A DNA stretch of 64,000 bases from Gemmatimonadota bacterium (GTDB taxonomy: Bacteria > JBHIER01 > G020348925). The translations under genes were made by a program, and so were the position numbers. The notes below the pieces were generated by a model. The model was not told the origin of the DNA, did no database searches, and was given only the letters and a program-made list of their open reading frames with translations. Within the stretch, counting starts at the first letter, position 1; every line of letters begins with the position of its first letter. The stretch is from positions 3,549,688 through 3,613,687 of the forward strand of contig CP070758.1 of the NCBI GenBank assembly GCA_020348925.1. The letters are read 5' to 3'. Positions 29,258-35,480 of this stretch are shown one piece after another.

Positions 29258-29333
29258 GCGCCCATAGCTCAATTGGTAGAGCAGCGGACTCTTAATCCGT
29301 TGGTTCGGGGTTCAAGTCCCTGTGGGCGTACCA
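29258..29333 (+). tRNA. tRNA-Lys (CTT)
   Basis: 76-nt cloverleaf, anticodon arm GCGGA-CTCTTAA-TCCGT, GTTCAAGTC T-loop, encoded CCA. Confidence 0.97.
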
Positions 29334-29340
29334 ATATTTT

Positions 29341-29694
29341 GGGGGCGACAGGTTTCGACGGGGATAGAGGGGGCAGGGATAGCAGGTCGAGCATTCCCAA
29401 TAACTCGTTAAACTGACGGGAACCAAATGTAAGTGCAAACGGTTATTCTTACGCACTGGCTGCTTAATGCAGCTCGTTCTCACCGGCCCTGCCTGTTGGG
29501 CTGGATGAGGGCGTCGTAAAAAACAGGCTGGCCTCTCCTTCACGCCGAGGGAGAAGAGGTGAGATTTTATCGGCTGGTGCCCTCCGGATCCCGCTTGTTG
29601 GAGCCGGATGGCATGAGACTCAAAAAGCAAGCTAAGCCTGTAGAGGTCCCTGTGACCGTATCTTCGGACGTGGGTTCGATTCCCACCGCCTCCA
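29341..29694 (+). ncRNA. ssrA: tmRNA; tag (A)NGYSYALAA*
   Basis: 5' GGGGGCGACAGGTTTCGACG, tag ORF 29435-29467, 3' GGTTCGATTCCCACCGCCTCCA; full CCA not encoded. Confidence 0.96.
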
Positions 29695-29890
29695 CTGCGT
29701 CCCTCGTAAGCCACCGTGAAACATCCTCACCGGCGGCTTTTTGATTTTAAAGATGGGCCACAGAGGCACTGGGATACAGAATATGTATAATGATAAATGC
29801 GGTGATATGTGGTAAACGCAAAGACAGTGTCACTGCCAGGGAGGCCGTGTTACAGGCGGCAGGTGAAAGCAGTTTTATTCCAGAACGCGG

Positions 29891-30124: not shown

Positions 30125-30709
30125 ATGAGGCGCTGGCGAAGACGCCGGACGAAGCAAGGGGAATTTGAAGAAACAGCACTGAGCCATTTCGATTCCCTAT
30201 ACAACGCCGCCGTCCGAATGACAGGGAGTGCGTGGGAGGCCGAAGATCTCGTTCAGGAAACCTACATGAAAGCCTACGCCTCTTTCCATCAGTTTCAGCG
30301 GGGCACGAATTGCAAGGCATGGCTCTTTCGAATTTTGATGAATACATACCTTAACACTTATCGGAAAGACAAAAGAGAAGCCCAGGCTCTTTCTCTTGAG
30401 ATCCCTGAGGATGGTTACATTTTCAATAGATTTGAAGAGGAGATTCCGAACTTCGGGGAGGTTATGGGCGAAGAGTTTTTGGGGAAACTCGTAAGCGATG
30501 ACGTGAAACGCGCCATCGATGACCTTCCAGCGGAGTTCAGAGCCGTCGTTCTTCTGTCGGATTTGGAATCCTTGACGTATCAAGAGATCGCGGATGCTCT
30601 GGATTGCTCGCTGGGGACGGTCAAATCACGGCTTTTTCGAGGGAGGCGAATGCTCCAGAAGAGCCTGTGGGACTACGCCGTGGAGAAAGGCATCGCGAGG
30701 AGGAGATGA
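30125..30709 (+). CDS. ECF RNA polymerase sigma factor, SigR/SigH-like
   Basis: [51 protein letters not shown]...[11 protein letters not shown]. Confidence 0.93.
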
Positions 30710-30710
30710 G

Positions 30711-31541
30711 ATGACCTGTGAACAAGCCACAACCCGTCTCCACGAGTTTCTGGACCACGAGCTGTCCGGGCAGCGCCACTCCGAGGTCGGTGCACATCTT
30801 GCGTCGTGTCCGTCGTGCAGACGAATGTACGAGTTCGAGCAACAGCTTCGGAATACCGTCTGGGAGAAAGGCCGCGAAGAGAAAGCCCCCGCTTACGTCT
30901 TCGAAAGGGTCAAACGAAACGTATTTGAAAAGAAGAAGAGAGAAGTGAAGGATCGTTCCGAACGCTCGTGGATGGGACTGAGACCGGCTTGGAATTGGGC
31001 CGTCGCCGCCCTTGTCGCTGTCACCGTGGCGGGGACCTGGGTGGCCCTGAGGGGGAAAGGAGGACCTCCGCCCTTGCTGGCGGAGCTGGTGGGCGATCAC
31101 ATGCAGTACGCTGAGGCTGAGAAGCCGTCGGAAATGGTCTCCTCCGACGCTGATGAAATCGAGATCTGGTTGGAGGGGAAACTGGGGTACGCCATCGTGG
31201 TGCCCCGGTTCGAAGGGCCACATATGCACCTCATCGGGGGCAGGATCCTGGATGTGAAGGGGATGAAGGTGGCCTACCTCTTTTATCAGGGGGACGGGCG
31301 CGCGCTGTCCCTGTATGTGACAAAGGTTTCGACCGCCGAGCTGTGTGCCAAGGATAAGCTTCAACTCCAGGATTGCCGGCTCTGCCTCGTGAAGTTTCAC
31401 AACTGCGAGCTGTGCATCAGTAAATTTCGGGACTACAACATCCTGTCCTGGGAGGAGGAAGGGGTCACCTATGCCATGGTCTCGGATTTGGATAGTGAGC
31501 ACATGCTCGATGTGACGTGCCCCCGAGGCATCCCAAGTTGA
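30711..31541 (+). CDS. Zinc-binding (ZAS, zf-HC2) transmembrane anti-sigma factor
   Basis: MTCE....HLASCPSC (HxxxCxxC), one TM, external domain with LIGGR..VAYLFY. Confidence 0.88.
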   Translation: MTCEQATTRLHEFLDHELSGQRHSEVGAHLASCPSCRRMYEFEQQLRNTVWEKGREEKAPAYVFERVKRNVFEKKKREVKDRSERSWMGLRPAWNWAVAALVAVTVAGTWVALRGKGGPPPLLAELVGDHMQYAEAEKPSEMVSSDADEIEIWLEGKLGYAIVVPRFEGPHMHLIGGRILDVKGMKVAYLFYQGDGRALSLYVTKVSTAELCAKDKLQLQDCRLCLVKFHNCELCISKFRDYNILSWEEEGVTYAMVSDLDSEHMLDVTCPRGIPS

Positions 31542-31573: not shown

Positions 31574-32308
31574 ATGGAAGAAGTGACTATTTTTGCGGCA
31601 TTTATTGCGGGTGTTATATCCTTTGGATCACCTTGTGTCCTGCCGCTCGTTCCGGCCTATATATCCGTCATCTCCGGAATCTCCCTCGATGAGCTCAAAG
31701 GGGGCCACGATAAAAAACTGGTCTGGAGAAAGGTGAGCCTCAATTCAATCGCCTTTATTCTGGGATTTTCGACTGTGTTCGTTCTCCTGGGGGCATCGGC
31801 CACGGTTGCGGGCCAGTTTCTGTTGAGCAAACTGACGGTTATTACCAAGATTGCCGGGGTGCTCATTATTATCTTCGGGCTGCACACCATCGGTCTCTTT
31901 CGGCTTAAATTTTTATATTACGAAAAGCGGTTTCAAGCCCAACAAAAGTCCGTCGGCCTTTTAGGCTCCTTCGTTATTGGATTGGCGTTTGCCTTTGGTT
32001 GGACGCCCTGCATTGGTCCGATTCTGGCGGCTATTCTTATTGTGGCCGGGACTCAGGAGACGGTGCTGCAGGGCATCTCCCTTCTGGCCATCTATTCGCT
32101 CGGCCTCGGGTTGCCCTTCTTCATTACCGGCCTCAGCATCAATTTCTTCCTGGGCATGTTCAGTAAGATGAAGTGGAAGTTTTTCCGCACCATCGAGATC
32201 GTCAGCGGAGTGTTCCTGATCGTTGTCGGCGTCCTCATCTTTACGAATTATCTCTCTATTATTAGTAGCGTACTCATGCAGTGGTTTCCGTGGCTCAATT
32301 TGGGATAG
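31574..32308 (+). CDS. ccdA: CcdA (DsbD transmembrane domain) electron transporter
   Basis: SFGSPCVLPLVP and FAFGWTPCIGPIL. Confidence 0.92.
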   Translation: MEEVTIFAAFIAGVISFGSPCVLPLVPAYISVISGISLDELKGGHDKKLVWRKVSLNSIAFILGFSTVFVLLGASATVAGQFLLSKLTVITKIAGVLIIIFGLHTIGLFRLKFLYYEKRFQAQQKSVGLLGSFVIGLAFAFGWTPCIGPILAAILIVAGTQETVLQGISLLAIYSLGLGLPFFITGLSINFFLGMFSKMKWKFFRTIEIVSGVFLIVVGVLIFTNYLSIISSVLMQWFPWLNLG

Positions 32309-32321
32309 GAAGGTGCACATC

Positions 32322-32855
32322 ATGCCGATTCGAATGAAACAATGGAGTCTGTTCCTCTTTGTCCTGATAGTGACCGTGAATGGGATGCGGTGCTCGGGCA
32401 GGCAGAAGGAGGCTACGCACGCCGATCTTCAGATTGCACCGGATTTCACCCTGAACGACCTGAACGGTCGAACCGGCAAACTGTCGGACTATCGAGGCAA
32501 AGTCATCATATTGGACTTCTGGGCAACCTGGTGTGGGCCCTGCCACATGCTCATCCCGCACTTTAACGATCTGTATACGAAGTATAAGGAGGCCGGATTC
32601 GAGATCGTCGGAGTGGCCCTAGATCAGGGAGGAGCCAAGCTGGTGAAACCCTTTGTGGAGAAACATTCGATCGCCTATACGAACTTCATCGGAAACCATG
32701 ACGTGGCCATGAAGTACGGGGGCCTGCGAGGTATTCCGACGACCTTTGTTCTTACGAAAGAGGGTCGGATTTTCAAGAAATATGTTGGAGTTCCCCCCAA
32801 CCCACGGGATACGTTTGAAAATGATATTCGAACGTTACTCTCTCTGGAGGGTTGA
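32322..32855 (+). CDS. TlpA/ResA-family thiol-disulfide reductase, probable lipoprotein
   Basis: APDFTL, DFWATWCGPC, GIPTTF. Confidence 0.9.
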   Translation: MPIRMKQWSLFLFVLIVTVNGMRCSGRQKEATHADLQIAPDFTLNDLNGRTGKLSDYRGKVIILDFWATWCGPCHMLIPHFNDLYTKYKEAGFEIVGVALDQGGAKLVKPFVEKHSIAYTNFIGNHDVAMKYGGLRGIPTTFVLTKEGRIFKKYVGVPPNPRDTFENDIRTLLSLEG

Positions 32856-32999
32856 GATGCGGCCAGAATAAGGAGGTGATATCGACTCAGAGACTTTCAC
32901 ATGATATGGATCGAAAAAGAGTTCAACGTATTATGAGAGTTCCGCAGTACGTAAAAAACCGTTACATTGTTGCTGTCATTGTTTTGAAAGGAGGATAAC

Positions 33000-34397
33000 A
33001 TGAAAGGTACGGTCGGAAGAATAGTGGCGCTGGTGGTTGTTGTGATCATTGGCGTGGCAGCAATATATTTCGTTGCTTCAAACGCGGGCAACAAGGTCGT
33101 CCCGCCAGTGGCTGAAGGGGAAAAGGTGTCCTCAGGTGAAACAGCTGAAGGCACAGTCGTTGCTACCGGGCCTCAGCCGCAAATTCAATTCGAGGAGATG
33201 GTGTACGATTGGGGTACGGTCTACCAGAACCAAAAGGTCCCCCACGTATTTAAATTTAAAAACGTGGGTGAAGTCGATCTGGTCATAGAGAATGTGAGGT
33301 CCTCGTGAGGATGCACGGCAGCGTTGCTGTCGGAAAAGGTTATTCCCCCCAAGGGTGAAGGTGAAATAAAAGTCACTTATAATTCCGGGAAACGGAAAGG
33401 TTCCCAGTCCAAGTCCGTTTCGGTTGAAACGAACGACCCCAATAACAAGAAGCTGTCGTTGAAGGTAAAAGGCATTGTGAAAGAGGCGGTGGCGTGCAAA
33501 CCCGATCGGCTCAATTTCGGCAAGATCGTCCAGGGAGATACCCAAATGCGGGAGGTCACAGTCACACCGGGTGAGGGCGAAAAGGTGAAAGTGAACAAGG
33601 TGGAGTCCTTGTCGGAATATGTGACGACCAAGCTTTCAAAGAATCCCGAGGGTGAAGGCTATGTCGTTCAAGTGACGCTGAGCCCGAAAGCTCCGCGGGG
33701 CCGTCTGGACGGACAGGTGAAAGTCTACACGGACAATGAAAACGCGCGGGAAATTACAGTCTATGTGAATGCCACGATCACCGGGGAGATCGTCTTCGTC
33801 CCGGATCGGGTAACTCTCATTGTCCAGAAGGAACAGGAGAACCAGGGGGCGACGGTCACCGTGCACAAGGAGCGAGAGGGGACCTTCGCAATTACGAAGG
33901 TCGAATGTGACGTGTTGCATGTGTCGACGGAACTTCAGACTTTGGAGGAGGGAAGACGTTACACTGTGCTTCTGAATGCCTCGGACCAAGTCGACATCGG
34001 AAGGGACAGCGGCACCCTGACCCTTCACACCGATGCGCCGGACGATCCTGAGGTGAAAGTTCCTCTGACACTCATTGTTCGCGGCAACTTGAACATCATC
34101 CCAGAGCAACTGTCCTTCGGCCTGGTCAATCAGGGAGATCAGAGGACGAAAACGATCACCGTGTCGACGAGTAAGGAAAAACTCAAGATCAAAAAAGTGA
34201 AATGCGACTTGGGCTTTTTGACGACGAATGTGGAGGAGAGAGAAGCCGGGAAAAGCTTCCAAATCAAAGTCACCACAGAGGCGAACGCGCCTGATGGGCA
34301 GTTCGATGGAACATTGACGATAGAGACCGACGATTCGCTTCAGCCGAAGGTGGAAATTCCGGTGAACGGGAGAGTTCGCGCCAAACCCTCGACGTAA
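33000..34397 (+). CDS. Membrane-anchored DUF1573/multi-Ig domain selenoprotein (Sec at TGA 33306-33308), 465 aa
   Basis: ORFs 33000..33308 and 33324..34397 are in one frame. The junction reads VRSS-U-GCTAALLSEKVIPPKGEGEI, matching the DUF1573 V..SCGCT...I.PG motif. A hairpin follows the TGA. Confidence 0.85.
33316..33332 (+). promoter_or_regulatory. Candidate bacterial SECIS hairpin
   Basis: CGGCAGC-GTT-GCTGTCG stem starting 7 nt after the TGA, with a G-containing apical loop. Confidence 0.6.
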
Positions 34398-34430: not shown

Positions 34431-34931
34431 ATGGAACCGAGAAAAGTGTGGCGGTCCGTTGTAAAGGAGGCGGTGTGGATTATTCTTGTTTCATCCTTGA
34501 TCGGCTTTACTGTGAATCTCTCTTTTGTGATCGACGTCTTGCGCGGCGAAAGGGCCGTCAGTCCCGAACAGAAGATTGATTCGATTCTCAACAATAGCGA
34601 CGTAACGCCGGTCACGCTTCCTGAAGCAAAGAGAGCCTTTGACTCGAACAGCGCTCTTTTTGTCGACTCCCGAAGTGCGAAGGATTATGCTGAAGGCCAC
34701 ATCCTGGGCTCGATCAATCTGCCCTGGGAGGATTTCGAAGAGCTCAAGGCCGACCTCGAGGCTCTGATCCAGGAGGACAGAACAATCATCACCTATTGCG
34801 GAGGTTCGTGCGATAGCAGTGCTGAGTTGGCCGAGGCGTTAAGAGCACATGGTTTTACACATGTAAAGGTCCTTTTGGACGGATGGCCGTTGTGGGTCAA
34901 AGCACAATACCCGGTGGATGCATTCGAATAA
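34431..34931 (+). CDS. Membrane-anchored rhodanese-domain protein
   Basis: N-terminal TM, FVDSRS..DYAEGHILGSINLP, active-site loop YCGGSCDSS, LLDGWPLW. Confidence 0.88.
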   Translation: MEPRKVWRSVVKEAVWIILVSSLIGFTVNLSFVIDVLRGERAVSPEQKIDSILNNSDVTPVTLPEAKRAFDSNSALFVDSRSAKDYAEGHILGSINLPWEDFEELKADLEALIQEDRTIITYCGGSCDSSAELAEALRAHGFTHVKVLLDGWPLWVKAQYPVDAFE

Positions 34932-34991: not shown

Positions 34992-35480
34992 GTGAGTTTT
35001 TTCGAGTTTCTGAAGCAAGTTGTCTCGCACAAAATCCTGGGATTTTTCTTTCGGATGTTATTAGGGGCGACGTTCCTGTACGCCTGCTACGATAAGATCC
35101 TTCATCCGGAGGCGTTCGCCGAGGCCGTGGCCAACTATCGGATGCTTCCCGCAGCCCTGGTGGGACTCTTGGCCGTGACATTGCCCTGGGTGGAACTCTT
35201 CTGCGGGTTATTCCTCATCCTGGGCCTGTTCATCCGCAGTAGCGCCCTCATCGTTTCCCTCATGTTTTTCGTATTCAGCATCGCCCTGTCCGCCGCCGTC
35301 CTGCGAGGCATCGATATCGATTGTGGCTGCTTCCGTGTCACGGATGGCGGTCACAGCGTGACCGTCGGTTTGATTCTCCGGGATCTCGGCTATCTCGTGT
35401 TAAGCCTTCACGTGCTTTTTTTCGATAAGGGATTTCTGAGTTTCTCGCCGCTCATACGACAATTGCGTCGCAAAGCGTAG
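34992..35480 (+). CDS. MauE/DoxX-family membrane protein
   Basis: R..LGATFLYA..DKI, LPWVEL..GL.LILG, RGIDIDCGCF. Confidence 0.88.
   Translation: MSFFEFLKQVVSHKILGFFFRMLLGATFLYACYDKILHPEAFAEAVANYRMLPAALVGLLAVTLPWVELFCGLFLILGLFIRSSALIVSLMFFVFSIALSAAVLRGIDIDCGCFRVTDGGHSVTVGLILRDLGYLVLSLHVLFFDKGFLSFSPLIRQLRRKA

Follow-up and report, generated by a model that had tools for sequence, protein, structure and literature searches.

A 64,000-nucleotide stretch of a Gemmatimonadota bacterium genome (GenBank assembly GCA_020348925.1, contig CP070758.1, positions 3,549,688 to 3,613,687 of the forward strand; hereafter the window) carries a gene of the OS_HP2/DUF1573 family whose reading frame is interrupted by a single TGA. 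Here, we report comparative and genomic support for the reading that this UGA, at 33306-33308, is almost certainly decoded as selenocysteine (Sec, U) under the direction of a hairpin at 33316-33332, in a gene that lies inside an operon with MauE disulfide-forming machinery. The gene and its parts were placed as follows (window coordinates).

33000..34397, plus strand: predicted selenoprotein gene of the OS_HP2/DUF1573 family, 465 codons plus TAA at 34395-34397 (reading frame, PF07610, NF041425, start context)
33003..33083, plus strand: N-terminal hydrophobic helix, residues 2-28, signal anchor or signal peptide (DSSP)
33183..33482, plus strand: immunoglobulin (Ig)-like beta-sandwich domain 1, residues 62-161, carrying U103-G104-C105 (PF07610, NF041425, structural model)
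33306..33308, plus strand: putative UGA selenocysteine codon, residue U103, position 1 of the U-G-C-T motif
33316..33332, plus strand: hairpin of the selenocysteine insertion sequence (SECIS) type, 7-bp stem, GTT apical loop, starting 10 nucleotides (nt) after the U of UGA
33489..34379, plus strand: Ig-like domains 2 to 4, residues 164-261, 264-361, and 364-460 (structural model, DUF1573 stretches, sequence)

The gene opens with ATG 33000, preceded by an AGGAGG ribosome-binding site (32989-32994). An earlier reading of the window made from the letters alone (the sequence-only reading) had joined two open reading frames (ORFs), 33000-33308 (102 aa) and 33324-34397 (357 aa), into one; both do lie in a single frame in which TGA 33306-33308 is the sole intervening stop, and the 465-aa read-through product, with VRSS before the TGA, agrees exactly with that reading (local sequence, VRSS-U-GCTAALLSEKVIPPKGEG; in a longer rendering, VRSS-U-GCTAALLSEKVIPP). 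The product was matched by PF07610 (DUF1573) over three stretches (E = 3e-39; 133.4 bits versus a cut-off of 26.1), and the match at residues 62-160 is a single domain that straddles the TGA at residue 103. The same reading called the gene hidden from standard gene callers, which holds for naive ORF callers; the NCBI library, on the other hand, contains a dedicated model (NF041425) for the family, which is published. A plain ORF list gives two genes, a 102-aa membrane peptide and a 357-aa protein starting at TTG 33324, but this arrangement would sever the DUF1573 domain at 62-160, which the structural model folds as one sandwich (62-161), no Shine-Dalgarno sequence precedes 33324, and the second product would have no export signal; we give the two-gene reading practically no chance.

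The TGA was checked in other assemblies, using contigs of one study, the best holder among which may itself be the source. In a second sample of that study, a contig covers 32936-33472 without differences and thus carries TGA at the position where TGC or TGT had been considered; the TGA falls outside the coverage of two runs of a second study, X3 and X5. Single-base differences inside the gene were seen in contigs of other runs (33485 G>A, 33547 T>C, and 33620 T>C), with 33547 T>C present in three runs, the near-identical best holder included, a sign that the gene varies between strains at sites distant from the TGA.

When 41 genomes were searched with the read-through protein, 11 gave matches. 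The best of these (G001, 59% identity; G003, 43%; G023, 29%; G020, 28%) have exactly one TGA each, and it falls in the same U-G-C-T column, so that the placement of the TGA at the first position of a DUF1573 [C/U]-G-C-T motif, proposed from the window alone, is seen in homologues as well. Across 22 scored segments, the column held U in 6 rows (5 genes), Cys in 14, and another residue in 2. Species-representative genomes were then scanned with an alignment (A2) that begins just past the U/C column, which left the scan blind to Sec versus Cys; another alignment (A1) was rejected for this purpose as too divergent. At the 47 loci recovered, the column was TGA in 26 and TGC or TGT in 21 (25 TGA and 19 Cys read directly, with three off-register loci settled separately), proportions that are not representative of DUF1573 overall because the search pattern CTAAL[LA]S[EA]K limits the sample to one subfamily. 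By record titles, TGA forms came from KSB1, Thermodesulfobacteriota/"delta," Acidobacteriota, Spirochaetes, and CSSED10-310 metagenome-assembled genomes, and Cys forms from Desulfuromonadales, Aminicenantes, Auribacterota, Poribacteria, and others. Cys or TGA thus occupies the column, as the sequence-only reading expected.

On a tree of domain 1, three Sec/Cys changes are needed (two to three over bootstraps), of which well-supported branches force only one; the window gene groups with L041 and the KSB1 orthologue L042 in a clade whose members all have Sec (support, 97/89). Downstream of the TGA, the coding frame is conserved among orthologues at 43 to 60% protein identity. These data bear on whether the TGA arose by nonsense mutation or by faulty assembly, with the gene then a pseudogene or its true codon TGC or TGT. 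The unexceptional folding energy of the hairpin region (given below) would suit such an error. Against it stand the TGA in the same column at 26 of 47 loci in several phyla, the conserved downstream frame, the identical bases in the second sample's contig, and the DUF1573 domain that spans the TGA, and we find it hardly credible.

Tandem DUF1573 paralogues were also observed, at G023:C17:99559-101817 (L024/L039) and at L056 (3447-4562); in these pairs, the TGA-less form lies directly upstream of the Sec form in the same orientation. The window's own genome (contig G000:C1) holds many huge open frames, up to ~3,700 aa, in which DUF1573-like Ig domains, free of TGA, recur (for example, 2319332-2325766 and 3091909-3096284; 23 query matches in the genome).

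The genome, a single contig of 5,038,017 bases that is 96.3% complete, contains the Sec machinery that the sequence-only reading had looked to. A tRNA-Sec was found (65.8 bits; cut-off, 47) with anticodon TCA (UCA), together with a selD-selB-selA cluster in which every gene scored above its curated cut-off (372, 396.5, and 598.8 bits, respectively). The cluster lies outside the window at G000:C1:2516704-2521550 on the minus strand. Its selD has one in-frame TGA at the active-site position and is itself a selenoprotein; the Sec machinery is therefore in use. Among the genomes compared, selA was above its cut-off in all four with a TGA form versus one of five with Cys forms only, the latter each 95 to 100% complete.

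The 7-bp hairpin that had been noted just 3' of the TGA (33316-33332; CGGCAGCGTTGCTGTCG, loop GTT) is part of the minimum-free-energy (MFE) fold. By itself it is not beyond chance, because the 71-nt stretch around it folds no better than shuffles (z = −0.16; 87 of 200 as good). Comparative tests do put it beyond chance. All five TGA genes of the 41-genome search have a hairpin of at least 7 bp beginning 10 to 17 nt past the UGA, and the hairpin is letter-identical in the window gene, G001, and G003 despite 43 to 60% protein identity. In these three orthologues, codons +3 to +9 are identical, giving a 23-nt run that is the gene's only all-identical run of at least 8 nt; against a background of 41 identical codons in 160 identical-residue columns, the hypergeometric P value for +1 to +10 is 0.003, and a run of seven identical codons was reached in 60 of 10,000 shuffles.

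Because generic MFE did not discriminate as a SECIS test, uninterrupted stems were counted instead. The encoded peptide motif is common to all of these genes, yet a stem of at least 7 bp within +8 to +44 was present in 23 of 27 TGA genes (window gene included) versus 1 of 21 with Cys (Fisher P = 1e-8; Mann-Whitney P = 5.5e-7); the significance is exaggerated in both tests, since related sequences are not independent. Three hairpin classes were distinguished, corresponding to the three Sec groups on the domain-1 tree. The largest class has 14 sequences (13 distinct), and at one of its stem pairs eight carry C-G and five U-A, with the pairing broken in none; the covarying columns are synonymous third positions (Ala GCY, Lys AAR), and 1 of 500 shuffles reaches such covariation, which concerns a single pair and could be one event. 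Two Desulfuromonadales Cys forms (L068 and L087) have a weakened 6-bp version of the window-class hairpin, with G-U pairs, at +9 to +24 after the Cys codon, which may be what is left of a SECIS that was in use before Cys replaced Sec.

The UGA of selD is followed, 27 nt downstream, by a 9-bp hairpin whose GTT loop is closed by a C-G pair, as in the window gene. The shared loop is held to be suggestive only, because GTT-loop hairpins past in-frame TGAs are not enriched genome-wide (5 versus a mean of 5.5 over all 64 loops). The GTT loop was accordingly rejected as a SECIS signature of the organism; the three other hits look non-coding by eye.

Several of these results count against selenocysteine decoding: the fold of the 71-nt stretch is matched by shuffles, folding energy fails to separate Sec from Cys genes (mean, −11.9 versus −10.8 kcal/mol; P = 0.20), the GTT-loop hairpins lack genome-wide enrichment, and the confirmation of the TGA in contigs comes from one study, with one contig possibly the source itself. 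Selenium-free read-through of the UGA, whether by near-cognate suppression or by a Cys-charged tRNA-Sec when selenium is scarce, would yield a Cys, Trp, or other variant, and Cys forms are evidently functional, given their presence at 21 of 47 loci. This reading is at odds with the complete Sec machinery, including a Sec-dependent selD, with a SECIS-type hairpin under nucleotide-level constraint, and with the use of TGA as an ordinary stop elsewhere (it ends 14 of 38 open frames of at least 250 codons in the window, as well as three operon genes); we regard it as very unlikely. Selenocysteine remains the residue that almost certainly occupies position 103.

The gene is a further member of a selenoprotein family known since 2007, and its selenoprotein status is not new. 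Residues 65-161 score 104.8 bits against NCBIfam NF041425 ("OS_HP2 family (seleno)protein"; cut-off, 100), a model that also matches 45 of 45 aligned homologues (E ≤ 0.001). OS_HP2 was described among new selenoprotein families from the metagenome of Olavius algarvensis symbionts in 2007 (PMC1976440), and a 2008 Global Ocean Sampling (GOS) paper lists it as pfam07610 with a UxC motif and 354 Cys homologues (PMC2398784); the UxC/UGC motif also stands in review tables (PMC9312934 and PMC13188914). Because OS_HP2 is published and NF041425 scores the gene above its cut-off, the finding is not new in kind. The available portions of these four papers give no function for OS_HP2, and a full-text literature search for DUF1573 returned nothing functional, judging by its listings. 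The window gene shares with OS_HP2 selenoproteins the Pfam domain, the position of U-G-C, the NF041425 score above cut-off, and the Sec/Cys homologue pairs and downstream stem-loop that the available text reports for the family; it differs in its four domains, its lineage, and its sigma/anti-sigma-CcdA-TlpA-rhodanese-MauE operon. Cys-containing DUF1573 (PF07610) proteins have the same fold and a C-G-C-T motif, and some lie upstream of rhodanese-MauE as the window gene does, but they have Cys for Sec, and a hairpin of at least 7 bp occurs in only 1 of 21.

The structure was predicted with AlphaFold2 on a 45-sequence alignment with C in place of U (mean predicted local distance difference test [pLDDT] score, 92.8; predicted template-modeling [pTM] score, 0.73). 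The anticipated N-terminal anchor is modelled as the hydrophobic helix at residues 2-28, followed by a disordered linker (residues 30-51; pLDDT, <50). Because basic residues (K and R) precede the hydrophobic run, the bulk of the protein should face outward under the positive-inside rule. The sequence-only reading foresaw one U-G-C Ig domain and about three more, and the model has sandwiches at 62-161, 164-261, 264-361, and 364-460, the first of them a single sandwich with pLDDT >95 in which the turn that joins strands 94-101 and 105-109 holds U103-G104-C105. The CxC motif is absent from the sequences of domains 2 to 4. A choice-of-anchor D match was found at residues 359-446, and PF22544 also matched (2.2e-23).

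In Foldseek searches against the PDB, every hit was an array of tandem Ig-like domains (hydin/CFAP-type ciliary proteins, cadherins, an RTX adhesin, and an S-layer protein) with TM-scores near 0.2. The PF22544 match and the best Foldseek hits, to hydin-type ciliary proteins, liken the protein to the HYDIN/CFAP65/VesB-type (ASH/MSP-like) Ig domains; those belong to structural eukaryotic proteins without the Sec/Cys pair, and the TM-score is ~0.2 since only the repeated domain matches and not the arrangement. A thioredoxin-fold oxidoreductase of the DsbA/TlpA/MauD type was considered and rejected, as the model is all-beta and Ig-like, the Foldseek hits are Ig arrays, and the motif is UxC rather than CxxC. 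Homologues have one to four domains (117 to 483 aa, some clipped at contig ends), with the U/C domain always first; the four-domain, 465-aa layout is common only to the same-family genome (G001) and the KSB1 orthologue, and other members have one to three domains.

The gene is the fifth of seven same-strand genes separated by gaps of 13 to 144 nt, with a convergent EamA gene after the last. Operon boundaries were drawn from strand and short gaps, because promoter and terminator scans gave nothing above shuffles. The other six genes are listed below.

30125..30709, plus strand: sigma factor of the extracytoplasmic function (ECF) type, first gene of the cluster (Sigma70_r2, Sigma70_r4_2)
30711..31541, plus strand: anti-sigma factor, zf-HC2 (ZAS) (zf-HC2; weak RsrA-like NCBIfam hit); start set at 30711 on a Shine-Dalgarno-like context, longest ORF from 30594
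31574..32308, plus strand: CcdA/DsbD-type membrane electron transporter (DsbD_TM, 5.9e-19)
32322..32855, plus strand: exported TlpA/ResA-like thioredoxin-fold protein with WCGPC (ResA subfamily, 2.1e-30; AhpC-TSA, Redoxin; weak MauD hit, 5e-4); longest ORF from 32223
34431..34931, plus strand: single-domain rhodanese with an N-terminal membrane helix, predicted to face the periplasm (Rhodanese, 5.2e-19)
34992..35480, plus strand: MauE/DoxX membrane protein with a CGC-F motif, the genome's only MauE (MauE, 1.7e-24)

Upstream of the cluster, ~430 nt before the ECF sigma gene, a tRNA-Lys(CTT) gene is followed directly by a tmRNA gene (tag ANGYSYALAA; window 29258-29695). Genome G001, from the same family, retains the order CcdA, TlpA, selenoprotein, rhodanese as far as its contig runs, and linkage to MauE probably holds there too. 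Clustering of the genes next to close homologues found no partner kept across lineages; the neighbors that recur are lineage specific (TetR, a tandem DUF1573 paralogue, and Rieske/PetC in Desulfuromonadales). Around the KSB1 orthologue, for example, lie genes for Lon, a HepT/MNT pair, a BamB-like protein, and a beta-helix protein, and a Desulfobacterium locus has T2SS-F, YidD, and a TPR protein as its neighbors. A Rieske/PetC-type iron-sulfur gene lies downstream of the Cys form in seven loci of one lineage (L057, L059, L063, L064, L066, L070, and L071).

Family match searches of the 96.3%-complete genome found no DsbB (PF02600), VKOR (PF07884), or DSBA (PF01323). As none of these is matched and MauE is single-copy, the operon is the organism's only recognizable disulfide-generating locus. 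According to a preprint (https://doi.org/10.64898/2026.03.05.709764), MauE from Caldithrix and Desulfatibacillum replaces DsbB in Escherichia coli, and MauE's active site is a CXC (CGC) motif in a periplasmic loop; its partner is there described as still to be identified and expected to be probably thioredoxin-like. The words rhodanese, DUF1573, and selenocysteine are absent from the available text of that preprint, and a literature search on MauE and rhodanese together gave nothing relevant by title. The periplasmic rhodanese PspE, with DsbC, partly replaces DsbA/DsbB (Chng et al. 2012, as cited in PMC5403849). The rhodanese encoded beside MauE may be the missing periplasmic partner of MauE.

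MauE was found in 49 of 151 sampled genomes, and the 29 best-scoring MauE loci of other genomes (L118 to L146) were surveyed with 6-kb flanks. In 19 of the 29, the gene immediately upstream of MauE, on the same strand, is a homologue of the window rhodanese, so that rhodanese and MauE form a strongly conserved neighboring pair, and a CxC-type DUF1573 domain lies 1.1 to 1.5 kb upstream of MauE, again on the same strand, in 5 (motifs, SCGCT in three, ECGCT in one, and TCPCT in one). These five genomes belong to different families, the chance expectation for such a placement is, on a back-of-envelope estimate, ~0.04 loci, and no other DUF1573 hit fell within the 12-kb stretches around the 29 MauE loci. 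Every one of the 25 MauE homologues that tblastn recovered retains the CGC motif. Several MauE homologues lie in long open frames (279 to 376 aa), and those with an upstream rhodanese may be rhodanese-MauE fusions; naive start-codon choice could also explain them.

Taken together, a tethered OS_HP2/DUF1573 selenoprotein with a proposed redox role beside the MauE system is the best overall explanation, and we consider it highly probable. In this explanation, the SelA/SelB/SelD/tRNA-Sec system would insert Sec at the UGA as directed by the hairpin at 33316-33332, and the product would be exported and membrane-tethered, with a helix, a flexible linker, and four Ig-like sandwiches, the U-G-C standing on the membrane-proximal domain. 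How the U-G-C would work within the surrounding envelope thiol-disulfide system can be put forward only tentatively. The Sec103/Cys105 pair may cycle between the selenol/thiol form and a reversible selenenylsulfide; MauE (quinone-linked and DsbB-like, with its own CGC site) and the periplasmic rhodanese would form an oxidizing arm, CcdA and the TlpA-like thioredoxin a reducing arm, and the ECF sigma/ZAS anti-sigma pair would control the whole. The selenoprotein could take part as carrier, catalyst, or substrate/client. The predicted extracytoplasmic protein resembles MauE/DsbB-type generators and their carriers (DsbA and MauD) in being encoded with MauE, and its UxC pair is spaced like the CXC active site of MauE itself; unlike DsbA and MauD, it is an Ig-like sandwich without a thioredoxin fold or a CxxC motif.

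Other results weigh against such a redox role. The fold is a generic Ig/ASH array, as in adhesins and hydin, for which the Foldseek search of the PDB offers no catalytic precedent, and a PDB sequence search found no related solved structure (0 hits). CcdA, TlpA, rhodanese, and MauE are near none of the 46 other close homologue loci (tblastn, 1e-5), whose neighbors are unrelated, so that the redox context is not family-wide, and 24 of the 29 MauE loci have no DUF1573 neighbor. A true selenoprotein could instead use U-G-C at the cell surface to bind sulfane sulfur or a soft metal or metalloid (for example, Cu, Hg, As, or Se species), with the Ig array as spacer or adhesin. The CxC/UxC pair on an exposed turn could chelate, the adjoining rhodanese is a sulfur or selenium transferase, most homologues are without redox neighbors, and the fold resembles adhesin-like and ASH arrays; the operon, however, has no metal-handling genes, and the recurring partners are MauE (with its disulfide-forming CGC), thioredoxin-fold, and CcdA proteins. 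We judge binding of this kind unlikely. The more specific form of the redox reading, in which the MauE-rhodanese module has the U-G-C Ig domain as a dedicated redox partner in the periplasm, either as a non-thioredoxin selenenylsulfide carrier replacing DsbA or as a specialized client, is speculative, and we would not expect it to hold on present evidence.

What is added here is a correctly joined 465-aa gene that plain ORF callers split (the selenoprotein call itself being routine) and its setting: an OS_HP2/DUF1573 selenoprotein gene inside an operon with MauE disulfide-forming machinery, which is new. The Sec form has a CcdA/TlpA reducing pair on one side and a rhodanese/MauE pair on the other, and the genome gave no DsbA, DsbB, or VKOR match. 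The recurrence of DUF1573(CxC/UxC)-rhodanese-MauE, together with MauE as a DsbB substitute, offers a concrete, testable hypothesis for the function of DUF1573/OS_HP2 and bears on the identity of the periplasmic partner of MauE. If the U-G-C domain is a partner of MauE and rhodanese, the organism's only recognizable disulfide-generating system would contain a selenoprotein, DUF1573/OS_HP2 would gain its first function, and a selenium-dependent step would be added to bacterial oxidative protein folding.

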